Sequence record: PX516787.1
Source: a phage
Reading direction: 5' to 3' (one strand)
DNA length: 35,984 nucleotides
This document shows, piece after piece, positions 2,025-35,984 of the stretch (position 1 is the first letter of the stretch; every line of letters begins with the position of its first letter). The notes below the pieces were generated by a model. The model had not been told where the DNA came from. It searched no databases and worked only from the letters and a program-made list of their open reading frames with translations. The translations under genes were made by a program, and so were the position numbers.

Positions 2025-2035
2025 AGGTACTCAAA

Positions 2036-2899: not shown

Positions 2900-2909
2900 T
2901 TATAAATAT

Positions 2910-2933
2910 GGCTCCTTCGGGAGCCTTTAATTT
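2910..2933 (+). terminator. intrinsic-terminator-like hairpin (GGCTCC-TTCG-GGAGCC followed by TTTAATTT)
   Basis: Perfect 6-bp GC stem with a TTCG tetraloop, followed by a T-rich tract, 11 nt after the stop of the SSB-like gene. Confidence 0.5.
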
Positions 2934-2946
2934 GGAGCTTACCAAA

Positions 2947-6817: not shown

Positions 6818-7003
6818 ATGCGCACAATACAATGCCCCAACTGCCATTATGAAATTGCAGAAGATGATTTCATAACGCAGCAATGCCCTATCTGTGATTC
6901 ATACATGCCACTAAACCGCCTGTACTTAAAGGCCGATTCTGGTTTAGGCAGCATCATTCGCATCAATCCCGTGCAAACTCAGCCATTAGTGGATTGTGAT
7001 TAA
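6818..7003 (+). CDS. small zinc-ribbon protein
   Basis: 61 aa with CPNCHYE ... CPICDSY (two CxxC pairs). GGAG 6 nt upstream of the ATG. Confidence 0.5.
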   Translation: MRTIQCPNCHYEIAEDDFITQQCPICDSYMPLNRLYLKADSGLGSIIRINPVQTQPLVDCD

Positions 7004-17588: not shown

Positions 17589-17764
17589 CTGAAAAGTTCC
17601 CGGAAATAAAATACTTCTTGCACCGTCCTGTAATAGAGGACAGTTCACTCTGTTCTCTTAAAGAGTTACAAGATGGGACCTACTCTATTATGGATTTGTT
17701 GACCTTCCACGCAATACTTGATTTGCGTAACGAATTAAAACCTAAAGAAGAAGACAATGGCTAA
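17130..17764 (+). CDS. tail assembly chaperone, -1 frameshift long form (lambda G-T / P2 E+E' analogue)
   Basis: The -1 frame is open from 17486 to the TAA at 17762-17764 and spans the entire apparent 170-nt gap before the next gene. The heptamer T_TTT_TTC sits at 17486-17492 in the zero frame. Confidence 0.6.
17486..17492 (+). promoter_or_regulatory. -1 programmed ribosomal frameshift slippery heptamer T_TTT_TTC
   Basis: Classic X_XXY_YYZ site; the -1 frame has a stop at 17483-17485 and is then open for 93 codons. Confidence 0.6.
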
Positions 17765-20700
17765 TAACATAAAAGATTTGATGAGAATGTCCGAAGCCGA
17801 ATTGATTGGCTTAGGCGCTCAATATGGTCTGTCGTTCAATCCAGGTATGCGCAAACGAGATATGGCACAGCAACTTGAATCAAGTGCTGCATCTGGTTGG
17901 ATGGAAACAAATTCGCAGCTTATGGAAGAAACCCATACAGAAGATGATGGCATCTCTTATGGCACTTCCGACATGATTTCAGATTCAGCCCACATTGCAC
18001 AGATGATTTCTGGCGCTGGGCTGACTGAAACATTCCATGCTGCAATGAACGGTCCAAGTCACCATGTAGAAGCTATCCATGCCTACATGGAGAAATTAGG
18101 TGTATCCGCCGATGATGTGTGGATGCACATGCCCAAAGCAAACCCGAACAAACCGGAAGGTCATTGGGGAATGCTTAATGCGTACATGCGTGATACGCTG
18201 ACAGGTCATCAAGATATAATGCCAGAGCTTCCTGGACATTATTCAGGCGACATTATGGGCGAGTACTCCACAAACCGTGGAGATATTGCCAAGTCGTTCG
18301 GCTATCTTGCCCACATGTATGTTGACCGTGAACAATACGACAACCCAGACCGCTATGCACGAGATGTTTATCGTGTAGCCAAACGTTTAGAATCAGAATT
18401 GCCGCAAAACTTCCGAGAAGTTGCTGCTGTATCTGCAATGAATGTAGGAAATAAGTCGGGGCCAAAACTTTCATACATGGATTCATTGCCTAAACTTGGC
18501 TCTGAATCAATTGTTAGTGGTATCCAACACCCTCGACAGCCACTTAACGCATCTGGTTTACCACTTGGTTCATTTGGCAGCGGTATTAATGCCGAATACT
18601 CATTATCTGCATCCTTATCTGGCTCGCCAGGCTGGTCTGATGTAAGTAGGACTCTGTACCAAGATGTTTCTAGCGTAGTTAAGTCTGCGGCAAAGGTCTA
18701 TTCTGGTGATTCTGAAAGAGGGATGAGTGCACACCGCACTCAATCTTCTGACAGAGATTTGATTCTTGATTCTGCTTCCCGCTATGCAGACATTATAGAT
18801 GTTCGTTCTGGGTATGAGAATCTTAAGAAAGATATTGGCGACGACCCTCGCTACTCTGGTGCATCCATCCGTGGTGTTCTTGAGAATGCTCACCAATATA
18901 ATGAGGCAGAAGTAAGCAAGACATTTGACCCTGCTGAACGCTTAAGAAATACTGAACCTGCCGAACTAAGTCCTTCAACAGAGTTTATTACGCAACTCGA
19001 TTCACCAACGAGTTGGAACTCTGCTCGCGCTCGTCGTGAGAGTATTGCTATATCTAACTTGGACTCTGCTCCACAACCAGCTCCGAAAGAAGGCCCAATC
19101 CATTATCACAACATGGAACAGGGAACTCAGGAATGGTTGGACTTCCGCAAACAATACGACATTACTGGCTCCACTGTTGGTTCGTTTCTTGGTAACAATG
19201 AATACACCCGACCTTGGGCTGCAATGATTGATAAAATTGGCCTACAACGCGGAAAGGGGCCAAGTGAATTTACTAAAAGAATGTTCGAAGCAGGTCATCG
19301 GACGGAAGAAATTGCTCGTAACCGTGTCGCCAAAGAGTTTGGATTCGATATCGAGCAAGCTGGCGCAATAACAAATGACAATTATCCGTCGTTCATGTAT
19401 TCTCCAGATGGCCTTATCGGTGATGACGCGATTTGGGAACACAAGAATCCTGAAAGGGCTAAAAAGTTTTCTAATCTCTCTGCTGGCGAGCATAAGGACT
19501 ATTTCGACCAAATTCAATTTGGCTTGCTTGTATCTGGCCGTAGTCGTGCACTGTTCTCTCAGACAATCAGAGACAAGACGGTATCTGAGTGGATTGAGAA
19601 AGACGAGGGATGGTACGAGCGCAACAAAGATAAGATTGATTCTACTATTGGGCGTCTCAATGCTGGTCGAAAGTTTGTTGAAGATAATCCAGACTTACCT
19701 AATGATGAATTAATCAAGGGTGCTCGTGCTGCAATGACTGGCGATGGCATCTGGAAGGATGTTAAGCAAAGGTCAACTCGTGGATATTCTGCCGCAGCTG
19801 GAACACCTGATGACCCATTCATAGGCAACCGCACTGATGCTGGAATTGGTGAGGCCACGACTTCTGCCGTAGGCTCTGACAGCACGACTGGCAACGACTC
19901 GATGGCAGTATCTGTCAAGAAAGGTATTCTTGCTGCACAGGAAGAAAACAAACTGCGTGGACAAGATGCTGACTTTGGTGGAAATGATGGTCGTGGTGGC
20001 GGTGGTGGCTTCTGGGATACTTTCGATGCCAGCAGTTATGGTATTAGCGGAGGTGGTTCTGGTGGCGGCGGTCGTGGTGGTTGGAGAGTTGGCGGTAGCT
20101 TCTCAGATGACTTCGGTCGTGCTGGTGGGGCATTGGCTGCTGGCGTAGCTGGTGGCAGCATTGGTTCATTATCCAATGGCGCAATGAATGCCCTCATGAT
20201 GACTCCTTGGGGTCGTGTAGCTGGCATGGCTATTGGTGCTGCCCAGATTGGTAATGAAGCTCTGGAAGGTCTGAACGACTTCTACGGCAATTCTTTGGAT
20301 GCTGGTGTTAATAATCCTAACGAATATTCTTCCATGACTCAGGGCATGGAAATGTTGGGACTTAACTCACAACAAGCCAATCGACTCAATCAAACCACAC
20401 ATAGTGCCTATAACACCCTCCTAAATGGCGACCCCAGCGGCGCTGTGAACATCGTTCAGGGAACCCGTGGCCTTATCACAATTGGCGACATTCGTGCGGC
20501 ACAGGGCGACCCTGTGGCCCTAGCGCGGATAATGCGTGAGCGTGGTCAGGAACGGGGTTGGAGTCAGGCCCGTATTGCTGGTGCAATGCAGATGGCTGGT
20601 CTGGACGGTATGGCTCGTGCCTATGACCGCACAGAATACAGCATGGGCGAGGCTGAGGCGAACGTTAAGCGCGGAGCCGACTCAAACTATGCCGAAGGCG

Positions 20701-21428
20701 TTGCACAACTAGGAATCGCGCAGACGGAGCGTGCTGGTGTACTGCCTGGATACGCTGTTCCGCAAGCTGCAATCTCATACGGCAGCACCTTTATTGAGGC
20801 AGGTGGCGATGCCGCTAGAACGATGCGTGTGGCCTCCAACGGTACAGCCGATGCAGCACGTAATGTTTATGACTTTATCGCAGGAGAAGAGTCAGGGAAC
20901 CGTGATTTTAACGCAGATGGTTCGGTAGTTACATCGCCAACTGGTGCTAAAGGTCGTATGCAGGTTCTTGATTCAACTTCTCGTGACCCTGGCTTTGGTG
21001 TTCGTCCTGCCAAAGATAACTCACTTGAAGAACGTGCCCGTGTTGGTCGTGACTATTACGATGCAATGCTTAAGCGATATAATGGTGACGCTGAGAAGGC
21101 TATGGCGGCGTACACAGATGGTGCCGGAACTGTTGATGATGCTATCAACAAACATGGAACCGACTGGCTGAACGCTGTTCCACTACAGGCACAGAACCGT
21201 GTCAAGAAGTACCGCGAATGGGCTTCTCAGGGAGATTCTATTGCAGAAGGTGCAACTGGATTCACCAGAAACGGACTGTCCTATGGTCAGACACAGCCCA
21301 CCATAGTTAACGTTGAAGTCAAAGCTACCGTGAACAACAAACAAGCGTCTGCAACCGTGTCAACTCCGAACGGTCAAACTGTTACCCAAACAATCAACAT
21401 GGGTAATGGTGCAATGGAACGCAGATAA
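17757..21428 (+). CDS. tape-measure-position multidomain protein (1223 aa) with Rho-N-like N-terminus, YqaJ-like nuclease domain, Gly-rich tract and C-terminal lytic transglycosylase domain
   Basis: Lies between the chaperone and baseplate genes. N-terminus DLMRMSEAELIGLGAQYGLSFNPGMRKRDMAQQL resembles the Rho N-terminal helix-hairpin-helix. QGTQEWLDFRKQYDITGS ... SPDGLIGDDAIWEHK (about nt 19100-19470) resembles a YqaJ / lambda-exonuclease PD-(D/E)xK domain. Poly-Gly tract at about 19970-20230. AGEESGNRDF ... GAKGRMQV ... AYTDGAG (about 20860-21180) resembles the SLT lytic transglycosylase motifs. Confidence 0.7.
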   Translation: MANNIKDLMRMSEAELIGLGAQYGLSFNPGMRKRDMAQQLESSAASGWMETNSQLMEETHTEDDGISYGTSDMISDSAHIAQMISGAGLTETFHAAMNGPSHHVEAIHAYMEKLGVSADDVWMHMPKANPNKPEGHWGMLNAYMRDTLTGHQDIMPELPGHYSGDIMGEYSTNRGDIAKSFGYLAHMYVDREQYDNPDRYARDVYRVAKRLESELPQNFREVAAVSAMNVGNKSGPKLSYMDSLPKLGSESIVSGIQHPRQPLNASGLPLGSFGSGINAEYSLSASLSGSPGWSDVSRTLYQDVSSVVKSAAKVYSGDSERGMSAHRTQSSDRDLILDSASRYADIIDVRSGYENLKKDIGDDPRYSGASIRGVLENAHQYNEAEVSKTFDPAERLRNTEPAELSPSTEFITQLDSPTSWNSARARRESIAISNLDSAPQPAPKEGPIHYHNMEQGTQEWLDFRKQYDITGSTVGSFLGNNEYTRPWAAMIDKIGLQRGKGPSEFTKRMFEAGHRTEEIARNRVAKEFGFDIEQAGAITNDNYPSFMYSPDGLIGDDAIWEHKNPERAKKFSNLSAGEHKDYFDQIQFGLLVSGRSRALFSQTIRDKTVSEWIEKDEGWYERNKDKIDSTIGRLNAGRKFVEDNPDLPNDELIKGARAAMTGDGIWKDVKQRSTRGYSAAAGTPDDPFIGNRTDAGIGEATTSAVGSDSTTGNDSMAVSVKKGILAAQEENKLRGQDADFGGNDGRGGGGGFWDTFDASSYGISGGGSGGGGRGGWRVGGSFSDDFGRAGGALAAGVAGGSIGSLSNGAMNALMMTPWGRVAGMAIGAAQIGNEALEGLNDFYGNSLDAGVNNPNEYSSMTQGMEMLGLNSQQANRLNQTTHSAYNTLLNGDPSGAVNIVQGTRGLITIGDIRAAQGDPVALARIMRERGQERGWSQARIAGAMQMAGLDGMARAYDRTEYSMGEAEANVKRGADSNYAEGVAQLGIAQTERAGVLPGYAVPQAAISYGSTFIEAGGDAARTMRVASNGTADAARNVYDFIAGEESGNRDFNADGSVVTSPTGAKGRMQVLDSTSRDPGFGVRPAKDNSLEERARVGRDYYDAMLKRYNGDAEKAMAAYTDGAGTVDDAINKHGTDWLNAVPLQAQNRVKKYREWASQGDSIAEGATGFTRNGLSYGQTQPTIVNVEVKATVNNKQASATVSTPNGQTVTQTINMGNGAMERR

Positions 21429-21433
21429 GAAAG

Positions 21434-21463
21434 TGCCGGGATTTAATCTCGGCATTCTTCTTT
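21434..21463 (+). terminator. intrinsic terminator (TGCCGGGA-TTTAA-TCTCGGCA followed by TTCTTCTTT)
   Basis: 8-bp stem with one G-T wobble, followed by a T-rich tract, 6 nt after the stop at 21428. Confidence 0.55.
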
Positions 21464-21504
21464 AACATTATTTGAATATGTATTAATTTCAATAGGTGTA
21501 TAAC

Positions 21505-22602
21505 ATGCCGTGGATGCGTGGTATAGAGATAGTTGTCTCAAGAAAGGATGACCCAGAAACCAAGTCTGTGTTTAAAGCACACAAGATTGATTTCACCATC
21601 CGGTCAACTGTTGGTTGGCCAGCAGATACTGCCGATATTACTCTATACAACCTGGGCGTCGATGAAGTTAAATTCCTTCAAGACAAGTCCTATGGTGATA
21701 TGTATATTGAAATTCGTGCAGGATATTACGAAGACGAGCGTGTCGTTAATGCTGGTCATAATAAGTATCAAAGCCCAGGTCAGATGGATTCGGAAGTAAG
21801 GGTTGAGATTGGTCAAGTCCTTCCAACAATCTTCTCTGGCATCGTAACAAACGCGGTGGGATTCAGACGCCCTCCAGAACACATAACACAATTGTTTTGT
21901 ATCTCCAAAGCCTATGGTGCATCTACTGAATTTACTCAGATGAGGGACATTCCAAATGGGGCAACCTTGGAAGATGCCATTCGTTCTATGTGTGCTGACT
22001 ACGGCTTCTCGACCATTTCATCTTTTGGTGTTGAGGAATCTGTATTCAAAACTAAGTTGAAGTTAGGTCGAGTGTTCCACGACACATTCTTGGAAGAATT
22101 TCGGGCCTTACTTGGAGAATATAACTTACTATTCTCAGTAACAACTGGTGAGATTCAAATCTTTCCAGACACCTACGGCAATAAAGATGCTGTAGACAGA
22201 ATGTCAAAAGACCGTGAACCAATCAAGCTAGATGCCAATCAGGTTATTGGGAACCCTATTGCTGGAATTGCAACATACTCCTTGAATACGTTTCTTAACG
22301 CTAGCTACCAGCCAGGAATGATTCTGGATGTATCTCCTTTGTTGGGAGAACAATTGCTGGCTAATGGCGTTACTTCGGTGAATGGAAAAGGTGTTGTATT
22401 AAACACAGACCAAAGCGTGTTCCGTTGGGCGATGGAAGATAAATACTTCATCACAGAAGTTGTCCATCATGGCTCAACCCATGAAACTGTTTTCCAAACA
22501 TCCATCACTGCAATGCTTGGTGGCAATACTGCAATGGGCGGTAAAGAAGCGGCTTGGCAGCAAGCCTACTTAAACAGTGGAATGGCTATGGAGTCTTTCT
22601 AA
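21505..22602 (+). CDS. putative baseplate hub / tail-associated protein
   Basis: First gene after the tape-measure-position gene. The ORF track starts at GTG 21496; ATG 21505 with AGGTG 6 nt upstream is preferred. Confidence 0.45.
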   Translation: MPWMRGIEIVVSRKDDPETKSVFKAHKIDFTIRSTVGWPADTADITLYNLGVDEVKFLQDKSYGDMYIEIRAGYYEDERVVNAGHNKYQSPGQMDSEVRVEIGQVLPTIFSGIVTNAVGFRRPPEHITQLFCISKAYGASTEFTQMRDIPNGATLEDAIRSMCADYGFSTISSFGVEESVFKTKLKLGRVFHDTFLEEFRALLGEYNLLFSVTTGEIQIFPDTYGNKDAVDRMSKDREPIKLDANQVIGNPIAGIATYSLNTFLNASYQPGMILDVSPLLGEQLLANGVTSVNGKGVVLNTDQSVFRWAMEDKYFITEVVHHGSTHETVFQTSITAMLGGNTAMGGKEAAWQQAYLNSGMAMESF

Positions 22603-23504
22603 TGGCATTAATTGATACAAGTCTTATCGGGGATGGATTATCATCCCTGTCGAAAGCATTTAGTTATGGACATAATCCGTCTGTGATTATGTGGTCTAAT
22701 GGCCCATCGGTCCAGAAAGAAGACGAAGGATTGTTTGGTAAAGCCTTTGGTGGCATTGCTAAGACAATGGAACCTCTTGTTACATCTTCGGCCCCAGAGA
22801 GCTTCAACTCTTTTAAGTTCGATGCAATTGTTAGTGAAGAGCATGATGCTCAGTCGGTCGTTACCAAGTTCCCTGTAAGTTCTGGCTTCATGGTTAGTGA
22901 CCACATTATCAAACAAAACCGAATCTTAAAACTAACTGCTGTTGCAACAAACATGCAGAACGCTGCAATGTGGACTGCTTCTGTTCAAGGTTTATCTGTT
23001 GCCACTGGTGCAATCTTTAATAACCCAATCATTCCCATTATCGGTGCTGCTGCTGGTGCTGTTGCCTCTGCATTTGAAACGAGCAATCGAATCCAATCTA
23101 CCTATGATTTGTTTAACAACTTCCGCTCGACCGGAACCAAGCTGTACATCTCCACTATCATCGGCCCTTATTTGAATTGTGTAGTAACTGGCATTCGAAC
23201 TAAGACTGACAAAATGACTTCTGCAATTCTGGCTGTTGAAATTACACTGGAAGAGCTGCAAGTTATTGGTGAAGATGTACTGGCAATCGAAGCTCGTAAG
23301 GCAATGCAGTCTATGACAGATTATTCAGAATTTGGGAAGATTGCCCAAAGTGCTGGTATAGGTGCTCTTGGCGGTGCTGGCGTAACTCTCCCAGGTCTGG
23401 GTGCAGTTGGCGCTACGGCAGTGAGTCAGCTTGGTACGTTAAAAGATAAACTTGCCAAACTGGAATCTCCTCTGTCCTCGGTTAAAGGGAAGCTGTTCAA
23501 ATGA
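22602..23504 (+). CDS. putative baseplate / tail tip protein with hydrophobic Gly/Ala-rich segments
   Basis: TAATG overlap start at 22602. Contains GAIFNNPIIPIIGAAAGAVASAFE and SAGIGALGGAGVTLPGLGAVGATAV. Confidence 0.45.
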   Translation: MALIDTSLIGDGLSSLSKAFSYGHNPSVIMWSNGPSVQKEDEGLFGKAFGGIAKTMEPLVTSSAPESFNSFKFDAIVSEEHDAQSVVTKFPVSSGFMVSDHIIKQNRILKLTAVATNMQNAAMWTASVQGLSVATGAIFNNPIIPIIGAAAGAVASAFETSNRIQSTYDLFNNFRSTGTKLYISTIIGPYLNCVVTGIRTKTDKMTSAILAVEITLEELQVIGEDVLAIEARKAMQSMTDYSEFGKIAQSAGIGALGGAGVTLPGLGAVGATAVSQLGTLKDKLAKLESPLSSVKGKLFK

Positions 23505-23863
23505 CAGAACAACAAGCTATGCAAGAGATATTATCACTACTCCCACCAGGGTATGTGAAGACTGTCCCATACGATACCTCAAAGGATGTATCCTTTGAGT
23601 TTCGTGGTGTCACAGTCAAAATGTCTGCATTGTATTTAAACGAGTATTTAAACTGCTACATGTTTGACCTTGCTTGGGGTTCATCTGAAAAGATTTATGG
23701 AATCCCTATTCGCGGCGGTGTTGATATTCTTAAGCAATACAGCACACCGCTGCCAAACATGTACGTTACGAATACTGTAAGTCCAGGAGAAGAGGTCTAC
23801 ACTTGGCGACAAATGTTCCTCTTCATTGTAGATGCGAGTGTACTTGAACGTGGCGAGTCATAA
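23501..23863 (+). CDS. hypothetical baseplate-module protein
   Basis: 120-aa ORF with an ATGA overlap to the previous gene. Confidence 0.4.
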   Translation: MTEQQAMQEILSLLPPGYVKTVPYDTSKDVSFEFRGVTVKMSALYLNEYLNCYMFDLAWGSSEKIYGIPIRGGVDILKQYSTPLPNMYVTNTVSPGEEVYTWRQMFLFIVDASVLERGES

Positions 23864-24623
23864 CAACGATGTAAGGTCTGCAACTGTTAATACAGGATAC
23901 CCAGGCCATATTTATAACTTCGATGCTGTAACTCAAACCTGTGAGGTGCAGCTTGCAATCGAAAACCTGTTTACAGGCTACACCAATGCCTACACCTTAG
24001 AGAAGAAGAAGCGGCTCAGAAATGTTCCTGTTCAGTTCATCCAAGGTGGCGGTTGGAGTCTAACACATCCGGTCCCAGATGGCACTCCTTGTTATGTTCA
24101 CTTTGCTCAGCGCGGGATTGAACATTGGTTGGCAGAGAATAAAGACTCTGCTGGCATGATTGGTGGAAGACCTGCCCCAGCATTCAGTCAGTTGTTCTCC
24201 CACAACTCTGCTGTGTGTATTATTGGGATACAACCAATTCCAGGTGCAATACCAGGATTTAATGCAGGAGTTACTGAACTCCGAAACGCAAGTCGCGACC
24301 AACGTCTGACTCTTCATGGTGACGGAAAGGTAGAACTTATTACTGGTGCTGCAAAGATTACAATCACGAAAGATTCGGAGATAGTAATTGAAGCGACAGA
24401 AAAAGCGTCTGTTATCTCGCCGCAAATCCTTTTGGATGGCGACACCACAGTTACAAAATCGCTCACCGTTCTCGGAGGAATGTCAGTGTCAGGTGGCAGT
24501 GGTGGAACAATGTCAATTACAGGCGATATGGTTCAACAGGGTACGTTCACCATTAACGGAGTCACGGTTAACGAACACACCCACACTAACCCAGAAGGCG
24601 GCGATGTAGGGCCGATGAAATAA
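23832..24623 (+). CDS. baseplate spike / assembly protein V-like
   Basis: C-terminal GDMVQQGTFTINGVTVNEHTHTNPEGGDVGP resembles the gpV / spike C-terminal region with a His-x-His motif. Start is uncertain (listed ATG overlaps the previous gene by 32 nt). Confidence 0.6.
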   Translation: MRVYLNVASHNNDVRSATVNTGYPGHIYNFDAVTQTCEVQLAIENLFTGYTNAYTLEKKKRLRNVPVQFIQGGGWSLTHPVPDGTPCYVHFAQRGIEHWLAENKDSAGMIGGRPAPAFSQLFSHNSAVCIIGIQPIPGAIPGFNAGVTELRNASRDQRLTLHGDGKVELITGAAKITITKDSEIVIEATEKASVISPQILLDGDTTVTKSLTVLGGMSVSGGSGGTMSITGDMVQQGTFTINGVTVNEHTHTNPEGGDVGPMK

Positions 24624-24994
24624 TGGCTGGAAACTTACTGTTAGATTCTAACCACGATATTATTATTGGTCGTGGTGCAACCAGGGTCGGTGGTGTAGAA
24701 GAGGTTGCTCAAATAGTTAAGTGCAGATTATTAACAGTGTTCGGAGAATGGAAACATGACACGACCACTGGCCTCCCTTGGTTCGAGGGAATCTTCACTA
24801 AGACTGTCAGAACTGCTGATATTGAAGCAGCCATCGCCAACGTCATTCGAAGCACCCCAGGTGTTCAACAACTTATCTCTATAAATATTGATGCTGACTT
24901 CCGTGAGCGTGAAGTAAGAGTTTCATTCATTGCTATCTCAGATTATGGAAGTCTTGAGGATTACTTAACATGGCAACAATCCAGTACGGCGTGA
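24623..24994 (+). CDS. baseplate wedge protein (gpW / gp25-like)
   Basis: 123 aa between the V-like and J-like genes, TAATG-coupled. Size and position match the Mu gp46 / P2 gpW slot. Confidence 0.5.
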   Translation: MAGNLLLDSNHDIIIGRGATRVGGVEEVAQIVKCRLLTVFGEWKHDTTTGLPWFEGIFTKTVRTADIEAAIANVIRSTPGVQQLISINIDADFREREVRVSFIAISDYGSLEDYLTWQQSSTA

Positions 24995-26124
24995 CTGAAA
25001 ACGGGTTCGTACAGAAGCCTGTTCAAGAAATCGTGTCGCACATTAATAGCAGATTCCGTAGCGTGTTCGGTGCCAACTTCGACATTAGTCCAGAAGGCCC
25101 AGATGGACAGGTTATTGGAATTATTTCAGAAGAAATTTCTAAGTGCTGGCAACAGGCTGAAATGGTATTCAATGCCTATCGTCCTGGTGCAATGCAGAAG
25201 GTTGGTCTGGACAACATCTGCGAACTAACCTTCACAAAGCGATTGGTCAATTGGCCGTCTCGTGTTGGTGTTCGTTGTGCTGGTCAGGCTGGCACTCTTG
25301 TCCCTGCTGGCTCTATTGTCAGTGACGGGACAATGAACTTCAAAACACAGTATGATTGTATTATTCCAGGAACTGTTACGGCAGTAGCAACTGAGTCTGG
25401 CGAATATTACATTGCTGCTAACACTGTTAATAAAATTGTTACCACAGTCGCAGGTTGGGAATCAGTTAACAACCCAGAGATTGGGCAAACAGGTGTGGAT
25501 TATGAGTCTGACCCAGCACTTCGTATCCGCCGTGACAGAACTACTGCGCACAGCGGTTCAGCATTTGTTGAAGCTATTTACGCTGCACTCGCTGACCTTA
25601 ATCTTTCTTACATTCGTATTCGTGATAATGATACCGGCGCTCCTATTGGGACTCAGCCTTCGGGTACAGTATTTGTTGTCGTAGAGGGTGGAACAGAAGA
25701 CGAAATTGCTCGTCGAATTTATTCCTCCAAAACAGGCGGTGTTCCTACCCATGGTACTACATCCGTATCTATCTACGATAGTAAAGGCTATCCGCACGAA
25801 ATTAAGTTCAGTCGTCCAGAAGATGCAACCATTTATGTAACTGGTACATTCAAGCGTCGCCCTGGTTCTAATATTAGTTCCAACGATGCGGCACGCCAGT
25901 TGCAAACGGCTATGATGGAGTATATCAACTCCCTGAACCCAGGTGATTCTGTTATCTGGTCAGAATGTTTCAAGCCTATCATGGACGCTACTAACGGTGT
26001 TCAGGTTGATTCATTATTCATTGGTACTTCTGCGAGTCCAACTGGAATTGCTACAATCGAACTGGACATTGACAAGAAGGCTGTAGCCACATCTGCGTCT
26101 GTAGTTTTCACTGAAACACCATAA
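24970..26124 (+). CDS. baseplate protein J-like
   Basis: 384 aa, in the J position of a Mu/P2-like V-W-J-I baseplate cluster. Confidence 0.6.
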   Translation: MATIQYGVTENGFVQKPVQEIVSHINSRFRSVFGANFDISPEGPDGQVIGIISEEISKCWQQAEMVFNAYRPGAMQKVGLDNICELTFTKRLVNWPSRVGVRCAGQAGTLVPAGSIVSDGTMNFKTQYDCIIPGTVTAVATESGEYYIAANTVNKIVTTVAGWESVNNPEIGQTGVDYESDPALRIRRDRTTAHSGSAFVEAIYAALADLNLSYIRIRDNDTGAPIGTQPSGTVFVVVEGGTEDEIARRIYSSKTGGVPTHGTTSVSIYDSKGYPHEIKFSRPEDATIYVTGTFKRRPGSNISSNDAARQLQTAMMEYINSLNPGDSVIWSECFKPIMDATNGVQVDSLFIGTSASPTGIATIELDIDKKAVATSASVVFTETP

Positions 26125-26132
26125 GGTTAATA

Positions 26133-26777
26133 ATGGCTGGTAAATCTGGTTTAGATATGCTGCTAATGCAGTATAGCGATTCTCCAAACTTACGGGCGTA
26201 CATTCAGATTTTCTTGGACGAGTTAAAGCTCGTCCAGAATGCTCAAGAAGAGTCTGTTAAATACCGATACCTTGCCGATTCATTTGGCGTTATGGTTGAT
26301 GATATTGCATACCTCGTTGGTGCCAGCCGTACTATCTATGGTGCTGCACCACTTGGGTACTTCGGCTTCTATTCTGACCCAAGTGCATTCCCTGCCGGAG
26401 ATGACAATAATCCTGGCGTTGGTGGCATTTTGAAGTCAGATGGTGACCGGGACTCTGGTGACTTTGTTCGTACCGATACTCAACTTAAAGATGCAATACG
26501 TGCACGTATCCGCAAGGTTGTAGGAAGCTGCACAATCGAAGAACTGATTGTTTATGTGGACCTTGTTCTTGGTCGTAGCCTGAATCTTGAAATCATTGAA
26601 GGATTCCAGACTCTACATTACCAAGTACATAACACACTGTCAGTTGCAGAGAAAGTGTTGTTGGCTTACATGCTTCCAGACTTTAAGCCTGTTGGCATCT
26701 CCATAACTCTTTCGGACAATGGTGGTGCTATTGAACTCCCATATGTTTCTAAAGTTTATCCACCGGAGAACCGATGA
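26133..26777 (+). CDS. baseplate / tail protein I-like
   Basis: 214 aa, following the J-like gene and preceding the fibre genes. Confidence 0.45.
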   Translation: MAGKSGLDMLLMQYSDSPNLRAYIQIFLDELKLVQNAQEESVKYRYLADSFGVMVDDIAYLVGASRTIYGAAPLGYFGFYSDPSAFPAGDDNNPGVGGILKSDGDRDSGDFVRTDTQLKDAIRARIRKVVGSCTIEELIVYVDLVLGRSLNLEIIEGFQTLHYQVHNTLSVAEKVLLAYMLPDFKPVGISITLSDNGGAIELPYVSKVYPPENR

Positions 26778-27973
26778 CAAATCGTTTGAATTACCCAGAA
26801 TATTGGGCGCAGGATGGCGAAGCACTTGACCCCGATTTGGATACGACTGCACCATCCTATATCCCAGACCGATACGAAAATGTCGGCTGGGAAGCTGAAA
26901 AGCCTCCCGAACAATGGCAGAACTTCTTAACTCAAATCACTGACGTTAAGATTCGAGATATGTTGGTTGGTGGGATATTGCAATGGTGTGATACCGTAAC
27001 ATATTCGCTTGGCGCTTTTGCAATAGTTGATGGTAAGATTTATCAGAAGCGGGAAGAGATTCCTGGCAATATAAGTCCTCCAACCTCCGGAAGTGGTTGG
27101 CAAGAGGTTCTTGAGACAAACCTTGTTAAGTTTAATGAAAAGGTTCAATATCTCAAGAATGTGTTCAATGCTCATATGGCAGAACAGAACCCTCATAAAG
27201 ATACTGTAGACACAATTGTTGATGGGACATACCTTCAAGAATATGTGTACGACAGATTCGCCAGCGACGAACGAGTTACAACAATCCCATATCACATCTC
27301 CAGAACCGGCGCATCTGTCCACAGAGTAACTCCAGAACAGCTTGGAACACTTCCAACATCTGGTGGGACTTTCACAGGACCGATAACTTTCACCGAAGAA
27401 GCATATGCTGGTGGCGGTGTTTCACAATATGTACACCGAAATGATTCGACTGGCATATTCGAATTGGTTAATGGGACTACTGCAATTGGTGTGGACAGTA
27501 GTGGTCATGCGTGGTTCATAAACTCCGCCGGTGCTTTTGAAATCATTACGGAAGCAAACTACAACAAGTTCAACATTAAGTATGGGAACCAGTTTGCACT
27601 CCCTGTTCCAATGCTTCGTGCTGACTTTCATGAAGACATTAATGACGCAGGGTCTGTTGGTCTGTGGACCGTTGAGACAACCACTGCCCCAGAATTTTGG
27701 TATGGCGGATTTAACATCTCCAACAATGGGTTGAAGTTCTTTGGACCAACCTTCAATATCCCGACCACTGTGGTTGTTGTAGTTACTACCGATGAAGTTG
27801 ATGTAGTTATGCGAACTTCTAATGAAGATTCTTTCAGCTTTCCAGACGGACTTGACCTGAAAGACTACATTGATAACAAACTCTTTGCAGATAAGAATGT
27901 AATGGCTCTAAGATTCTTTGAGGTATATCCAAGACTTTCTGCTAACCAAATCTCTATGCTTGCGAGACGATAA
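26774..27973 (+). CDS. tail fibre protein
   Basis: 399 aa with an ATGA overlap to the previous gene. Contains GGTFTGPITF, a motif shared with the next fibre gene. Confidence 0.55.
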   Translation: MTNRLNYPEYWAQDGEALDPDLDTTAPSYIPDRYENVGWEAEKPPEQWQNFLTQITDVKIRDMLVGGILQWCDTVTYSLGAFAIVDGKIYQKREEIPGNISPPTSGSGWQEVLETNLVKFNEKVQYLKNVFNAHMAEQNPHKDTVDTIVDGTYLQEYVYDRFASDERVTTIPYHISRTGASVHRVTPEQLGTLPTSGGTFTGPITFTEEAYAGGGVSQYVHRNDSTGIFELVNGTTAIGVDSSGHAWFINSAGAFEIITEANYNKFNIKYGNQFALPVPMLRADFHEDINDAGSVGLWTVETTTAPEFWYGGFNISNNGLKFFGPTFNIPTTVVVVVTTDEVDVVMRTSNEDSFSFPDGLDLKDYIDNKLFADKNVMALRFFEVYPRLSANQISMLARR

Positions 27974-29364
27974 TGTTAAGACCAAAACTTAATAGAGTCT
28001 GGACTTCAAACAATGCCAACCTACGGCGTGACCCTGGGGATGCCAAATATCTCCAAGGGTGGATTGCAGAAATCCCAACCTTCCAGGTTCTTAACTATTT
28101 GCAGTATAAGGTTGACACTACTCTCCTAGCACTGGCTGAGCGTGGTGTCTTCGAATGGGGAACCGATGTTCAGTATGGACTTGGTTCCCTCGTGTGGGAT
28201 GATGCAACTCGAACTGTTTATGTTGCAACTGTTGGTTCTCCTAGCCGTACTTTACGTCCTAGTGAGAACTTGGGGCAGTGGGCTGCAAGTGCTATTCAAG
28301 TATCTCGTTACGACTACGATGATATTGTTAGCAAGATTTCTGCACACATCGCAGATACCACTTCCAACCCACATCGACTGACAGCCAATATGATTGGTGC
28401 ATACAACAAAGCACAAATCGATTCGCTGATTTCTCAGTACAATGCCCTTGTTGCGAGTCATGCCAATGACCGGAACAATCCTCATAAAGTAACTGCTGCC
28501 CAGGCAGGTGCTGTTCCTGTCGCTGGAGGTACTTACACCGGACCTGTTACATTCCAGCAAGGTATGCTGTTCGATGTAAGCGGTACTTCTAAGTTATCGT
28601 TTGGTCCTGCTGGCCTTTATATGCAGTCAGGTGACGAACGTATTGGGCTGGATGCCAGTGGTGTTCCGGTTGTTGGTAAGGCATCAACAAACACCAACTC
28701 TCGAATTATTACTGATGCAATATTTGCAGAAGTTAAGGCGCGAGAAGAGCCAAAGTATGCAGTACCTGCACCAAATTTCTGTCAGCACTTGATTGGCGAT
28801 TTTAATATCAACTCTGGCAAGGGTGCAATCAATGCCTCCGACAGTCTATATTTTAACAACGATTATGGTGGCGCTCTGTACAGAACTGCTGGGCAGGATG
28901 TTCGAGAAACTCTTTACGAAGGTGCGGGATACGGATTTACAGACTGCACAATCTGTGTGGATGTTCTTTCCAACTCACCTCGTGCGCCGAGCAGTGACGA
29001 TTCTGTTGGCGTATTCTTCTCCCTAAATGGATTGAATAGTGAGAACATAGACTTCTATTTGCAGAACAAGGGGCAGCTCAACCTTAACCGAAATGCCTCT
29101 GGTGCTAGTGACTGGATTTACTATAATCTCCCTAACCGAGTGAATCGCTGGTATCGTATTGCTGCAACCCTAAGCACGACCACTGGACTTGAAATATACG
29201 TTGATGGTGTTCGTGTGGCTTCTGATGCCTCGCAGAATGGTGCGGCTGCATGTGTTGGCAGGTATCCTCAGATTCATTTCCAGCCAACATCAAGAAACTA
29301 TGCTGTTCGCAACTTCCGAGTTTGGGATTTCAAAATGACACCAAACCAAATCTCTACTTTATAA
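27973..29364 (+). CDS. tail fibre protein with C-terminal LamG / concanavalin-like lectin domain
   Basis: 463 aa, TAATG overlap. Contains GGTYTGPVTF; the C-terminal NRWYRIAATLSTTTGLEIYVDGVRVAS is typical of a LamG-like jelly-roll domain. Confidence 0.55.
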   Translation: MLRPKLNRVWTSNNANLRRDPGDAKYLQGWIAEIPTFQVLNYLQYKVDTTLLALAERGVFEWGTDVQYGLGSLVWDDATRTVYVATVGSPSRTLRPSENLGQWAASAIQVSRYDYDDIVSKISAHIADTTSNPHRLTANMIGAYNKAQIDSLISQYNALVASHANDRNNPHKVTAAQAGAVPVAGGTYTGPVTFQQGMLFDVSGTSKLSFGPAGLYMQSGDERIGLDASGVPVVGKASTNTNSRIITDAIFAEVKAREEPKYAVPAPNFCQHLIGDFNINSGKGAINASDSLYFNNDYGGALYRTAGQDVRETLYEGAGYGFTDCTICVDVLSNSPRAPSSDDSVGVFFSLNGLNSENIDFYLQNKGQLNLNRNASGASDWIYYNLPNRVNRWYRIAATLSTTTGLEIYVDGVRVASDASQNGAAACVGRYPQIHFQPTSRNYAVRNFRVWDFKMTPNQISTL

Positions 29365-31595: not shown

Positions 31596-32150
31596 ATGTT
31601 ATCATTCAAAGTCCTTGCACTTCTGACAGCTTTAGTTCACATCAACGCCCCAGCTTCGGTTGGGGCAGTGAATTCTGCTATTACAGATTTTGCAAGTCAC
31701 TCTTATTTAAATGGAAGTCTGAAACTATCTTCTTCACAACGCAAAGAGCTAGAATGCTACACTAAAGTTATCTGGTATGAAGCTCGCGGAGAAGACAAAC
31801 ATGGAAAGATTCTGGTAGCTAATGTCGTCCGTAATAGAACTAAGTTCGGGAAGCCATTCGCTAACACCGTTTGTGATGTTGTCTATCAACGCAACCAATT
31901 TGCATGGACACGAGAAGCAAAGAAGAAGAATGCTCAATGGAAGCATGTAGCAAAGGTTAATTATGCCACAGAACAACAACAAGTTCTGGACACTATTAAC
32001 GTTGCAATCTCTTTTGTATTATTTAATCAACCCTCTGTCACCAAAGCAACCCACTTTTGTACAGCATCGGAGAAGTGCAACTTCAAGAATGTTAAAGGTT
32101 TGGGACGTTATGGTGGCCATAAATTCTATGAGTATCTAGGAAATCTGTAA
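31596..32150 (+). CDS. endolysin, SleB-type cell wall hydrolase with N-terminal signal peptide / signal-anchor
   Basis: N-terminus [24 protein letters not shown] looks like a signal peptide; [22 protein letters not shown] ... [11 protein letters not shown] matches the SleB (Hydrolase_2) core. AAGGA 5 nt upstream of the ATG. Confidence 0.8.
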
Positions 32151-33250
32151 TGGCTTACACTACCTTTTCACAAACCAAGAATAACCAACTATTAGAGCCA
32201 ATGTTCTTTGGTCAGAACGTTAACGTTGCTCGATATGACCAACAGAAGTACAGCATCTTCGAGAAGTTAATCGAGAAGCAGTTATCTTTCTTTTGGCGAC
32301 CTGAGGAGGTTGATGTTAGCCAGGACCGAATTGACTATGCTGGTCTGCCTGAATGCGAGAAGCACATCTTCACAAGCAATTTACGATACCAAATCCTGCT
32401 TGATTCCATTCAGGGACGTGGACCAACTACAGTTTTGCTGCCAATTGTGAGCATTCCTGAGCTGGAAACTTGGATTGAAACTTGGTCATTCTCAGAGACA
32501 ATTCACTCTCGTTCTTACACGCATATTATTCGTAATATCGTGACAGACCCTAGCGTAATTTTCGATGAAATTGTGGAGAATGAGCACATCAAAATGCGTG
32601 CAATCGGCATCTCCCAATATTATGACGAGCTTCAACATCTGACTTCCATGTGGCATCTGCATGAAGATAAAGTTTCTCTTCGTGAGCTTAAGAAGAAGCT
32701 ATATTTATGCCTCATGTCCATCAATGCACTGGAAGCAATCCGCTTCTATGTTAGCTTTGCTTGCTCATTTGCCTTCGCTGAACGTAAGTTAATGGAAGGA
32801 AATGCCAAGATTATTCGCTTAATTGCTCGTGATGAAGCACTCCATTTGACCGGAACTCAACACATGCTGAACCTTCTTGCAAGCGGTGTTGATGACCCAG
32901 AAATGGCAGAAATTGCTAAAGAATGCCGTCAAGAATGCCAACTCATGTTCGAAAATGTGGCCCAACAAGAGAAGGATTGGGCTGATTATTTGTTCAAAGA
33001 TGGCTCAATGATTGGCTTAAACAAGCAAATTCTATGCGGATATGTGGAATATATCACGAATATTCGTATGCAAGCAGTTGGATTGGATGCTCCATTCAAA
33101 GGTGCTACTAACCCGATTCCTTGGATTAACGCATGGTTGAATTCGGATGCTGTACAAGTTGCTCCACAGGAAACGGAGATTAGTTCGTACCTTGTCGGGC
33201 AGATTGACTCCGAAGTGGATACCAATGCCCTGGGCGGATTTGAGCTGTAA
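32150..33250 (+). CDS. nrdB: ribonucleotide reductase class Ia beta subunit
   Basis: Full-length (366 aa), with the di-iron ligand regions ([39 protein letters not shown]). From memory it is near-collinear with enterobacterial NrdB, apart from an apparent internal deletion of about 10 aa near [13 protein letters not shown]. Confidence 0.95.
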
Positions 33251-33398
33251 CGATTATATGTGAGAAGAGATTCGATGCGTTAGCGTCGTTTCTCTTTGAG
33301 CTAGGATAAAACAAGTAAATTAAATATCTATTTATTCCCAATATTGCTACAATATTAAGAGTAATATTAGGAATGCGTAAAGTTAAAACCAAATGATA

Positions 33399-33471
33399 CA
33401 TGGTCGGTCAACTGTACCTGGATAGAAATTCGTTCATGGTCGGTCAGCTGTATCTAGACGAAATTTGTTCG
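33399..33471 (+). repeat. tandem direct repeat, two copies of about 36 nt (CATGGTCGGTCARCTGTAYCT...)
   Basis: Copy 1 at 33399-33434 and copy 2 at 33435-33471, roughly 80% identical, read directly from the sequence. Confidence 0.7.
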
Positions 33472-33493: not shown

Positions 33494-33518
33494 TTTTTTT
33501 TTTATAATTTTTTTTTTT
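33494..33518 (+). repeat. two homopolymeric T tracts (10 and 11 T) separated by ATAA
   Basis: T10 at 33494-33503 and T11 at 33508-33518, within an AT-rich segment flanked by AATATT palindromes. Confidence 0.8.
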
Positions 33519-33544
33519 AATTTAAATATTGCTACAGAATTAAT

Positions 33545-33607
33545 GAGACTAGAATTCGTAACAAGCTACGAGACTAGAATTGTTTCAATATTAACGAGAC
33601 TAGAATT
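33545..33607 (+). repeat. three phased direct repeats GAGACTAGAATT (iteron-like or tandem promoter-like array)
   Basis: Exact 12-mers at 33545-33556, 33570-33581 and 33596-33607, spaced 25 and 26 bp apart, each followed by a CAATATT-type element. Confidence 0.8.
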
Positions 33608-33837
33608 GTGGCAATATTATAATTTTTATTTTTGGGCCAACGGGGAGGGGAAGCCCAACGTCCTATCGGACTTAAATACGGTCCCTACTCCAACTTTTTC
33701 CTACAGCCTATCGGCTTTCAAACAACACCAAGTTAGGCGCTTCGCTTATGGGTCAAGGTCAAAGTCTCCGTGCTGTTGTAACAATGGCACAGGTTTGTGA
33801 TATTAGTTGGAAGTGAATTGTGTAATGGCTACGCTAT

Positions 33838-33843
33838 TATAAT
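33838..33843 (+). promoter_or_regulatory. candidate host sigma70 -10 element (TATAAT) upstream of the RNAP gene
   Basis: Perfect TATAAT about 40 nt upstream of the RNAP start codon. No convincing -35 hexamer at 17 +/- 1 bp (TTGTGA at 33794-33799 is too far). Confidence 0.25.
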
Positions 33844-33883
33844 CCGTTTCAGTTAAATCATACACAATCTTGGAGACTTACAA

Positions 33884-35824
33884 ATGACTACTATCACCAC
33901 TCAAACTATCAAATCCGTTGTTCCTGCTATCACTGCTCTGGTATATCGTGCCAAAGAGAAACAGAACTATATGCAGCCTCAGACTTGTGCTATTGCTGCC
34001 TTAGCCATATTCAAGATGATGACGTCTTTCACTCGTGATGACGTTGTTCCTGCCATTGCGATGGTTGAGCTGGCTTCTGCTTCTATTGCTGATGCCAACC
34101 GCTACAACAACGATTTGAAAGCAATGCACTATGTTGACCCAGCTATCAACCTCATTGGTCTGGCTAAACACTTTGGCTTCATCACCATGAACGAAGATAA
34201 GTCATTCCAACAAACTGACACATGGGTTGAACTGGTTACAACCAAAGACACAGCAGTGCCATTCACTGAGCGTGTTACATCTGAATCTCGTCGCAAGCCT
34301 TTCGTTAAAGGTGGCAAAGTTAAGCCATCCAAGACTCTGAAAGCTGCAATCGAATTCCTGCAAGATACTGAGTACCATGTGGAGACTGAGATGGTTCGCA
34401 TCATTCAGTCCATGCTTGAGCAACGTACTTATGGTGGCTTGCAGATGCCAGAAGCAATCCAGACTGAACTCCATGTTTGGAACAATGCTGTAGCAATGAT
34501 GAATCAGGACACACTGTATTCTGACTACTTTGCTGATAACCGTGGCCGTCTGTATCATGTAGCATGTGCTGGCCCTAACCCACAATCCTCTGACTTTGCT
34601 CGTTGCTTGTATTCTCACAATGTTGAGAACATCGTTAAGAAGTTTAACGAAGATGGTTCTACTACCATTGCATACAACATGTTCATGGCAGAGCTGGAAG
34701 ATATTTCTGGTGGTGAATGGTGCAGTGCTAAACGTTTAACTTATGTTGCTCAGAATCCGGCTGGTTCACTTGCTCGCATGATGAACATGCCTAAAGCTGA
34801 ACGTCCTTCCAAGCCATTCACTTATGTTCGTCTGGCTCTGGATTGGTTCAAGTTTGAGACTATAGGTGAATGCGATTCTCGTGTAGGCTTTGGCTTAGAT
34901 GCTAAATGTTCTGGTACTCAATATCTGGCATTCATTGCTGGTAACATGGAAATGGCTCGTGCTACAGGTCTGGTTGATTCTGAGACTAAAGCATCTGACC
35001 CATACCAGTTGAGTCTCCGTGAACTGTTGAAGCTGCTGGACAAGTCTTCAATGAAGCCATCTCCTGAAATCATGGACGAATTCTTGAATCCGAAATCTGG
35101 TCGTAAGTTTATCAAAACTCCGTACATGGCTATTCAATATGGTGGTGGTAAAGCTGCATTAACTGGTTCATCTGACTTTATCTCCTACATGACAGAAGCT
35201 CTCCAGATTCCTATGGAGAAAGCTGAGGCATTTGCTGAACTGTGTGTAGAAGCAATCCATAACGCATTGGGTGCTAAGATTAACATGTTCATTGAGAAAG
35301 CTGCTGAGGCTGCATACAACCGTTGTGTTGAACTTGGCAAAGAGTACATCACATACCGTCACACTGATGGTCAGGTTGTAATGAAGCCTTGCTTCCCATC
35401 TCGTGAAATCTGTGAGGCATTCAGCATTCGTGTTGACAGCCAAACTCGTGTCATCTTTGGTCAGATTCAGGAGAATAAGCCTTGGACCATTCGTGAATCC
35501 AACCCAACTAAAGAAGAATTCAAGCGTACTTTCGTTGTTAACTACATTCAAGGTATTGATGCACTGGTTGCTCGTACTGTTGCAGTTAAAGCTAAAGAAG
35601 CTGGTCTTCGTGGCTTTACTTCAATCCATGATTGTTTCCGTTGCTGTCTGGCAGATGCTCCACGTATGATGGAAGTTATTCGTGCAGCATATGTTGAAAT
35701 CTTTGTAACCAACAATCAATTCGAGAATCTGTCTAAGCAACTTGGTGGCATTCAGATGTATCATGAGAACATCGTAACCGAAGAGCTTCTGATGAGCGAA
35801 CACGCTTACTACTTCTGTCAATAA
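33884..35824 (+). CDS. single-subunit DNA-dependent RNA polymerase (T7-family), compact (646 aa)
   Basis: GLDAKCSGTQYLAF matches T7 motif A (DGSCSGIQHF); RKFIKTPYMAIQYGGG matches motif B (RSVTKRSVMTLAYGSK); FTSIHDCFRC matches motif C (IHDSFG). GGAG 7 nt upstream of the ATG. Confidence 0.85.
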   Translation: MTTITTQTIKSVVPAITALVYRAKEKQNYMQPQTCAIAALAIFKMMTSFTRDDVVPAIAMVELASASIADANRYNNDLKAMHYVDPAINLIGLAKHFGFITMNEDKSFQQTDTWVELVTTKDTAVPFTERVTSESRRKPFVKGGKVKPSKTLKAAIEFLQDTEYHVETEMVRIIQSMLEQRTYGGLQMPEAIQTELHVWNNAVAMMNQDTLYSDYFADNRGRLYHVACAGPNPQSSDFARCLYSHNVENIVKKFNEDGSTTIAYNMFMAELEDISGGEWCSAKRLTYVAQNPAGSLARMMNMPKAERPSKPFTYVRLALDWFKFETIGECDSRVGFGLDAKCSGTQYLAFIAGNMEMARATGLVDSETKASDPYQLSLRELLKLLDKSSMKPSPEIMDEFLNPKSGRKFIKTPYMAIQYGGGKAALTGSSDFISYMTEALQIPMEKAEAFAELCVEAIHNALGAKINMFIEKAAEAAYNRCVELGKEYITYRHTDGQVVMKPCFPSREICEAFSIRVDSQTRVIFGQIQENKPWTIRESNPTKEEFKRTFVVNYIQGIDALVARTVAVKAKEAGLRGFTSIHDCFRCCLADAPRMMEVIRAAYVEIFVTNNQFENLSKQLGGIQMYHENIVTEELLMSEHAYYFCQ

Positions 35825-35888: not shown

Positions 35889-35984
35889 ATGTTTACAGTG
35901 ACCTTAGTAACCTATTACGGCAAGCAAGTTTGTGAGAAGTTTGAGACTTTAGAAGAAGCGAGAGCTTTTGCAGCTCGTGAAGAG
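35889..35984 (+). CDS. hypothetical protein, 3'-truncated by the window edge
   Basis: ATG at 35889 preceded by TTGGAGACTT, the same motif that precedes the RNAP start. The frame is open to the end of the window (MFTVTLVTYYGKQVCEKFETLEEARAFAAREE...). Confidence 0.4.
   Translation, partial: MFTVTLVTYYGKQVCEKFETLEEARAFAAREE

Follow-up and report, generated by a model that had tools for sequence, protein, structure and literature searches.

The RNA polymerase (RNAP) of phage T7 is a single-subunit enzyme of 883 amino acids that is composed of an RPOL_N and an RNA_pol domain. RNAPII of phage N4 (PDB 6DT7), in which gp15 (269 amino acids) and gp16 (404 amino acids) together make up 673 amino acids, is the nearest described architecture to the enzyme discussed here and is likewise of minimal size. 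In the genus Carltongylesvirus (Chaseviridae), which consists of myoviruses, a 'podovirus-like RNA polymerase' has been known since 2008, going by a title cited in PMC12842549. The gp1 proteins of Escherichia phages ST32 and phiEcoM-GJ1 (GJ1) are annotated as 'RNA polymerase' and are 646 and 648 amino acids long, respectively (PMC6266442, Table 2). The international virus-taxonomy committee (ICTV) calls the chasevirus RNAP 'large' (PMC12842549), and the papers searched term gp1 either 'large' or 'T7-like'; the protein is 27% smaller than T7 RNAP. The literature searched holds no comment on the compactness, the missing RPOL_N, the trimmed thumb or the biochemistry of the chasevirus RNAP. In this study, an RNAP gene at positions 33884-35824 of a phage DNA stretch of 35,984 nucleotides (record PX516787.1; the whole stretch is called the window) is compared with these systems. 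The gene very probably encodes the full-length gp1 RNAP of a Carltongylesvirus myophage, shortened in four places relative to T7 RNAP, for which a mode of action can be proposed. The gene itself is already known and is annotated in more than 50 phage genomes.

33884..35824, + strand: RNAP coding sequence, gp1 homologue, 646 amino acids, ATG start, stop codon included (from the list of open reading frames, ORFs)
33871-33877, + strand: ribosome-binding site (RBS) TGGAGAC, ahead of the RNAP start codon

Multiple profile searches identify the encoded protein. Pfam RNA_pol (PF00940) matched residues 323-621 with 65.2 bits (cut-off 22), a T7-like profile scored 160 bits, and PHROG 414 'RNA polymerase' matched with an E-value of 3e-97, covering profile positions 154-816 of 816. 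As this last match begins at position 154, the 646-amino-acid protein lacks the ~150 positions with which a typical family member starts. An NCBIfam search with the whole protein matched nothing. When the single protein was searched against PDB sequences, T7 RNAP was found only marginally (E 3e-3), pairing DNRGRLY with T7 DWRGRVY, LDAKCSGTQY with FDGSCSGIQH and IHDCF with IHDSF, and profiles and structure were required. The ORF is exactly as described in the original prediction, which had claimed a compact T7-family RNAP, and PF00940, PHROG 414 and the catalytic motifs agree with that claim.

The DNA of the region is 96.7% identical to that of ST32 and 88% to that of GJ1, and the protein is 99.5% and 91.7% identical to the respective gp1 proteins. 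In the other Cleopatravirinae genera that were checked (4HA13, Erwinia phages, PM1/PP101 and Proteus PA_03), the gp1 identity is 66-76%. The genomic position of gp1 is kept with respect to the type members, with the lysis genes and NrdB before it and small early genes after it. The gp1 of ST32 and GJ1 is therefore essentially the same protein, with the same length, the same site after NrdB and intergenic repeats, the same small downstream ORF and the same promoter-like motif described below. Nothing substantial differs; only the assembly is permuted differently and incomplete.

The comparison with T7 RNAP was based on two alignments: A1, a family alignment of 51 sequences, and A2, a T7-anchored alignment of 26 classical enzymes of ~800 amino acids. 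hhalign of A1 against A2 gave a probability of 99.9 and placed query residues 87-622 on T7 213-851. The catalytic motifs are located as follows:

34529..34561, + strand: T/DxxGR motif FADNRGRLYHV, D218/R220/R222 corresponding to T7 D421/R423/R425 (invariant columns in A1, hhalign)
34886..34927, + strand: motif A GFGLDAKCSGTQYL, catalytic D339 corresponding to T7 D537 (A1, hhalign)
35096..35149, + strand: motif B / O-helix, R407/K411/Y419/G420 corresponding to T7 R627/K631/Y639/G640 (A1, hhalign)
35615..35647, + strand: motif C FTSIHDCFRCC, H582/D583 corresponding to T7 H811/D812 (hhalign), with an HDCFR variant shared with N4 gp16

Further pairs in the hhalign alignment are M415 with T7 M635 and N553/D559 with T7 N781/D787. 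D339, D583, R407/K411/Y419/G420 and D218/R220/R222 are invariant in the 51 relatives and aligned to the T7 residues, and the catalytic core of palm and fingers is intact. The structure was predicted with AlphaFold2 using the family alignment, and the resulting model (predicted local distance difference test, pLDDT, 91.7; predicted template modelling score, pTM, 0.86) has a Pol I-like right-hand fold that is closest to solved single-subunit RNAPs (ssRNAPs). The best PDB matches of the model in Foldseek are T7 RNAP complexes (E 4e-19). By membership, the protein is thus a T7-like ssRNAP: it matches the profile of the catalytic domain and has the expected motifs and fold, and only RPOL_N is not detected.

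The protein is 237 amino acids shorter than T7 RNAP (883-646), and 338 residues precede the motif A Asp, compared with 536 in T7; the original prediction had put these values at roughly 240 and about 330, respectively. It had also placed the deficit mainly at the N-terminus, where 156 of the 237 residues are indeed missing. In the hhalign alignment, T7 1-212 is opposed to query 1-86 (-126) and T7 213-291 to query 87-135 (-30). The thumb region of T7 (292-448, 157 amino acids) corresponds to query 136-248 (113 amino acids; -44), and in the fingers, T7 594-671 corresponds to query 397-448 (-26) and T7 672-745 to query 449-513 (-9). The C-terminus accounts for -8 and the remainder for +6. By domain, the deficit is 156 residues in the N-terminal part, 44 in the thumb, ~35 in the fingers and 8 at the C-terminus, showing that thumb and fingers are trimmed too, beyond the N-terminal loss.

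34331..34501, + strand: truncated thumb, residues 150-206, ~44 amino acids below T7 (hhalign, hmmsearch alignment)
34280..34333, + strand: conserved basic linker to the polymerase domain, residues 133-150 SESRRKPFVKGGKVKPSK, R136 invariant (alignment A1 and a further alignment, A3), aligned with T7 291-315

With T7 RNAP, the protein shares the T/DxxGR motif, motifs A, B and C and the catalytic residues within them. Predicted hairpins align with the T7 specificity loop and intercalating hairpin, and the early gene is, as in T7, followed by conserved, here putative, phage promoters. The protein differs in the shortened thumb and fingers, in the absence of RPOL_N and of a detectable counterpart of T7 1-212, in motif C (HDCFR, whereas T7 has HDSFG) and in belonging to a myovirus. 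In addition, T7 H784 is replaced by an invariant Gln, Q556. This position, with its codon at 35549-35551, is His in all sequences of A2 and Gln in all 51 members of A1. In T7 RNAP, H784 contacts the ribose 2'-OH and the minor groove. The mitochondrial RNAPs, such as yeast Rpo41 and human POLRMT, are 1100-1350 amino acids long and have large N-terminal extensions and an RPOL_N-type domain, none of which is present here; they depend on Mtf1, TFB2M and TFAM, which are likewise not present here.

The N-terminal part was described in the original prediction as reduced or absent. Pfam found no match on residues 1-150 at E-values up to 10, whereas in T7 RNAP the RPOL_N domain (PF14700) is found at residues 36-322 with 120.7 bits. 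Within the RPOL_N domain, hhalign reaches only T7 213-291, and for T7 1-212, including the AT-rich recognition loop (T7 93-101) and subdomain H, no counterpart could be aligned by hhalign or hmmsearch. Nevertheless, a domain is predicted in this part of the protein:

33884..34243, + strand: reduced N-terminal domain, residues 1-120, with a predicted winged-helix-like fold
34175..34216, + strand: beta-hairpin 'wing', residues 98-111 GFITMNEDKSFQQT, on the T7 intercalating hairpin (~225-245) (hhalign, query 87-135 on T7 213-291)
35393..35509, + strand: beta-hairpin, residues 504-542, aligned with the T7 specificity loop (739-770) (hhalign; model strands 506-510, 513-516, 522-525 and 534-537)

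The strands of the wing, E100-102 and E107-110, were found in both models, and at lower ranks Foldseek aligned winged-helix proteins over 75-100 residues. Because RPOL_N is undetected while a winged-helix-like domain with a T7-aligned hairpin is predicted, the N-terminal domain would be reduced and remodelled rather than absent, with ~135 amino acids in place of the ~325-amino-acid RPOL_N and a helix and beta-hairpin kept. The first half of the earlier description thus stands, with RPOL_N undetectable and T7 1-212 unaligned, but absence does not, as a predicted domain of ~120 amino acids with a hairpin remains. The winged-helix-like domain may also hold a functional analogue of the AT-rich recognition loop. 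The domain is acidic to neutral, with an isoelectric point (pI) of 5.6.

A candidate promoter motif, cATTAGTTGGAtGTGAa, is present on both sides of the RNAP gene, is limited to the coding strand and is shared across genera. The two best copies in the window are:

33802..33817, + strand: phage-promoter-like motif ATTAGTTGGAAGTGAA, 66 nt upstream of the RNAP start codon
35846..35861, + strand: second copy of the motif, ATTAGTTGCATGTGAA, 21 nt past the RNAP stop codon and 27 nt before the next ORF

With at most one mismatch, these two are the only matches in the window, against 0.02 expected. In the GenBank record of GJ1, nine sites that have aaCATTAGTTGGATGTGAA as their consensus are labelled 'putative phage promoters'; the copy ahead of the RNAP gene is unannotated in that record. 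The top repeated 10-mer in GJ1 is the motif, with seven copies on the + strand and none on the - strand, and CATTAGTTG is found ten times on the + strand of GJ1 and never on the - strand. Exact 10-mer counts recover the motif in GJ1 and not in Pectobacterium phage PM1 or Aeromonas phage pAh6-C, for which mismatch-tolerant clustering was required. The core ATTAGT[TA]G has 13 copies on the + strand and none on the - strand in GJ1, and ten and none in both PM1 and a prophage-like locus of Hafnia alvei, of which the RNAPs are 70% (PM1) and 53% (Hafnia) identical. In the Hafnia locus, the RNAP gene has eight of the core copies downstream and two upstream, in the integrase and holin genes, and none is present in ~6.9 kb of flanking host genes. 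Restriction of the motif to the + strand was seen in four genera, and a syntenic copy precedes the RNAP gene in GJ1, PM1, Mangalitsa and 4HA13. The motif has neither dyad symmetry nor sigma-70 spacing.

According to a review, the Chaseviridae RNAP uses similar promoters genome-wide (PMC8472413). The motif cATTAGTTGGAtGTGAa is likely the promoter of the RNAP gene, as its pattern resembles that of a T7-style phage promoter. A copy in front of the polymerase's own gene would imply autoregulation through positive feedback. Weaker copies of the motif are also present in the window at 21467-21482, 6985-7000 and 1889-1904.

The window is a permuted and incomplete assembly that leads from the DNA polymerase gene via those for packaging, head, tail and lysis to NrdB (32150-33250), then crosses the start point of the GJ1 and ST32 records and ends 160 nt past gene 1. 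The RNAP gene is therefore gene 1 and not the last late gene. The original prediction had located it at the end of the late/lysis region, a placement that has to be revised: in relatives, the gene is at the left genome end, inside a direct terminal repeat (DTR) of ~3.1-3.2 kb. PhageTerm DTRs have been described for Mangalitsa (3,234 bp, repeat_region 1-3234) and 4HA13 (3,120 bp, 1-3120; PMC9699118), and both enclose the RNAP gene entirely, with their starts 200-420 nt upstream of it. Homology would put the RNAP gene of this phage first at the left end, within the DTR, and each virion DNA would hence hold two copies of it. Two features of the window relate to this end:

33672..33688, no strand: site homologous to position 1 of Mangalitsa (MN045229.1), predicted left terminus and start of the DTR (alignment, exact match)
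33591..33620, + strand: sigma-70-like site TTAACG-18-TATTAT, counterpart of the GJ1-annotated host promoter (364-393) (consensus match only, GJ1 annotation, alignment)

Since this sigma-70-like site is just outside the repeat, it would precede only the right-end or a concatemeric copy of the RNAP gene. The host-type -10 element that had been pointed out earlier (TATAAT, 33838-33843) lacks an acceptable -35 and is not kept in Mangalitsa. An 85-amino-acid ORF at 33543-33800, which spans the inferred terminus, is unlikely to be a gene.

From these data, a mode of action can be proposed in which the host RNAP would make the first gp1 mRNA, after which gp1 would transcribe the unidirectional genome from the conserved motifs of ~17-20 bp, its own gene included. 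The specificity-loop hairpin (504-542) would read the bases, while the small winged-helix domain could provide upstream contacts and help to bind and melt the promoter. As subdomain H is missing in the alignment, the T7-type N-terminal refolding at promoter escape could not be used, and escape would have to take place without it. On balance, gp1 is expected to act autonomously, although with modest confidence. Only tentatively can gp1 be described as a factor-independent, promoter-specific RNAP of 73 kDa that uses cATTAGTTGGAtGTGAa as its promoter, with a winged-helix domain of ~120 amino acids that binds and melts, a wing that acts as the intercalating hairpin, and no T7-type refolding.

Multiple observations weigh against the proposed mode of action. 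The tip of the hairpin is polar (NEDK) and variable in length, while the T7 tip is V237, and 5 K+R vs 5 D+E leave the specificity-loop region without a net positive charge. Residues that are invariant in T7-type enzymes are altered in the hhalign alignment, namely H784 to Q556, N560 to G362 and D552 to N355. In the consensus scan, the 212 nt that separate the ATG from the inferred DTR boundary contain no sigma-70-like site that passes. The ST32 record marks gp1 with 'No experimental evidence'. N4 RNAPII, architecturally the closest enzyme, cannot work alone (PMC4496689). In addition, promoters of chaseviruses 'have not yet been identified' according to the ICTV (PMC12842549), which makes the link between motif and promoter a prediction only.

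The gene itself is not new, and the value of the comparison is that it points to a little-characterised, single-chain RNAP of minimal size for which a promoter candidate is at hand. If gp1 works alone, it would offer synthetic biology and in vitro transcription an orthogonal RNAP/promoter pair of smaller size, as well as a natural experiment on the size of the N-terminal domain required by a T7-like polymerase. If it is indeed factor-independent, gp1 and the large HDCFR clade of 600-700 amino acids would be the smallest autonomous DNA-dependent RNAPs known. If a cofactor is needed, gp1 would be the second minimal factor-dependent phage RNAP, after N4 RNAPII.

This last situation is possible, although somewhat doubtful. 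In that case, gp1 would be a minimal polymerase comparable to N4 RNAPII that cannot bind or melt a duplex promoter alone, and its N-terminal domain would recruit a phage cofactor, such as a small early protein or a single-stranded DNA-binding protein, that supplies melting, specificity or both. The architecture of the two enzymes is similar: ~155 amino acids precede the thumb in both gp1 and N4 RNAPII (A1 position 157 equals gp15 position 158), the truncated thumb and the HDCFR motif C are shared, and N4 gp15, like gp1 here, has no Pfam match to RPOL_N. The undetected RPOL_N and the N-terminal pI of 5.6 also speak for this reading. N4 RNAPII requires the N4 proteins gp1 and gp2 and acts on single-stranded DNA, and T7 RNAP has been described as the exception among ssRNAPs in requiring no factor (PMC4496689). 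The N-terminal domain of N4 RNAPII is thought to recruit the cofactors (PMC7145618). However, homologs of N4 gp1, gp2 and gp15 were not found by phmmer among all ORFs of the window and GJ1 (best E for gp1 and gp2 >1), a homology search that leaves room for non-homologous cofactors analogous to N4 gp1 and gp2. The family profile is also nearer to T7 (63.7 bits) than to N4 gp16 and gp15 (22.5 + 6.5 bits), and the hairpin aligned to the T7 intercalating hairpin is kept. Furthermore, N4 RNAPII is a heterodimer that is split between T/DxxGR and motif A, whereas here a single uninterrupted chain of 646 amino acids is present. N4 RNAPII is inactive on duplex DNA without gp1 and gp2 and uses a short, AT-rich promoter element (-7..+2), whereas the motif found here is long, conserved and T7-style.

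It is very unlikely that the polymerase, or part of its pool, is virion-associated and injected, which would make early transcription independent of the host RNAP. N4 vRNAP is a precedent for such a strategy, and at the inferred left end a phage-type motif, not a host promoter, is the first signal that can be recognised: in Mangalitsa and 4HA13, ~130 nt separate the motif from the predicted left terminus, all relatives checked have it upstream of the RNAP gene, and no good sigma-70 site is present between the inferred terminus and the ATG. On the other hand, the right-end copy of the repeat would place the sigma-70-like site 33591-33620 upstream of the second RNAP copy, so that host-driven expression is possible, and gp1 is a 73-kDa protein without known ejection domains. 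According to the main text of the 4HA13 paper, the abundant proteins of the virion include those of capsid and tail, and the part of the supplementary text that was searched does not mention the RNAP.

That the short length is an artefact, in which a normal polymerase gene of ~800-880 amino acids has been broken by a frameshift or a mis-called start, or split with its N-terminal piece elsewhere, is hardly credible, despite longer annotated relatives (704 amino acids in Mangalitsa and P0001, 843 in pAh6-C and 757-901 in P0092, P0113 and P0116), given the several in-frame stops upstream of the ATG, the RBS and start conserved in the alignment of ST32, GJ1 and the window, and the 119 homologs among 5.8 billion proteins, nearly all of which are 600-670 amino acids long, down to 35% identity, and clustered at 630-650 amino acids. 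These were also the points on which the original prediction could have failed: an in-frame N-terminus upstream and a frameshift were both examined, and neither holds in view of the upstream stops and the length conserved in homologs. A mis-called start or frameshift was rejected on the same upstream stops and on the RBS and ATG, which are also conserved in the alignment with Mangalitsa. A split polymerase was rejected as well. A profile of the T7-like N-terminal domain (T7 1-325 from A2) was searched against 1483 six-frame ORFs from the window and 50 kb of GJ1 and reached a best E-value of only 0.69, indicating that no N-terminal piece is encoded separately in them. The 85-amino-acid ORF upstream (33543-33800), which spans the inferred genome terminus, is unannotated in relatives. 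The ORF downstream, which had been named earlier as a place to check for a missing piece, is a small gp2 homolog:

35889..35984, + strand: small downstream ORF, gp2 homologue (55-68 amino acids in relatives), cut by the window end, with no similarity to T7-like or N4 RNAP profiles

The longer relatives were also considered as a sign of a lost domain, and this was rejected too, as the 704-amino-acid form results from an insertion and the long N-termini of pAh6-C (843 amino acids) and of the metagenomic forms (757-901 amino acids) have no similarity to RPOL_N. The insertion, found in some Carltongylesvirus genomes, consists of 174 nt between the RBS and the RNAP start (Mangalitsa 211-384) and is in frame and stop-free. 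Because it bears its own duplicated RBS and ATG, the Mangalitsa RNAP is annotated as 704 amino acids. The 58 extra residues of the RNAPs of Mangalitsa and P0001 are unrelated to any RNAP domain.

In two database searches, 177 of 257 relatives carried HDCFR, with medians of 647 amino acids for the length and 338 residues ahead of the motif A Asp, compared with ~810 and ~510 for T7-type relatives (HDSFG/HDSYG). gp1 thus belongs to a sizeable clade of enzymes of 600-700 amino acids, which are mostly metagenomic. In the sister subfamily Nefertitivirinae, the RNAP of Aeromonas phage pAh6-C (gp34, 843 amino acids) shares the core at the family level and is matched by the A1 profile (87-641 on residues 267-842) with 489 bits, and its gene is likewise located after the lysis genes. 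This RNAP (21001-23532) differs in ~180 extra N-terminal residues that are unrelated to RPOL_N and in its motif C, HDQFR. In the early region of pAh6-C (23735-28900), the CATTAGTTG motif is replaced by five short GGCTCTnCGAGCC hairpins, each followed by an A-rich tract. With a 5-bp stem and a 3-nt loop, they resemble the small hairpins of N4 early promoters.

The Hafnia alvei locus mentioned above is a chasevirus-like element in the chromosome (NJFP02000002.1, 2778075-2800021). Its genes are ordered as tyrosine integrase, holin, endolysin, a 648-amino-acid RNAP, ArdA and small early genes, and eight copies of ATTAGTTG are present on the + strand downstream of the RNAP gene. As the element is integrated in a chromosome while Chaseviridae are described as strictly lytic, it looks like a temperate relative carrying an ssRNAP.

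The intergenic region 5' of the RNAP gene is built of repeats, with palindromes of the type AATATTG-N3-CAATATT, CATGGTCGGTCA(A/G)CTGTA in two copies and GAGACTAGAATT in three, the latter spaced 25-26 nt apart (33331-33358, 33516-33543 and 33605-33618; 33399-33458; 33528-33619). On the 3' side of RNAP and gp2, a non-coding region of ~1.1 kb (L001:2850-4050) is filled with the same palindromes (AATATTGTGACAATATT), often adjoining GCATGT, and has 72% column identity across GJ1, Mangalitsa, PM1 and 4HA13. In Rfam, neither the RNAP region nor the conserved downstream non-coding region of GJ1 had a credible match. This palindrome region could possibly contain operators, an origin or a non-coding RNA. 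Elsewhere in the window, a local G+C peak was observed at 20001-21000 (0.54 vs ~0.45 elsewhere, GC skew 0.15), which is located in a 1223-amino-acid ORF (17757-21428) that is homologous to tape-measure / 'putative tail fiber' proteins.

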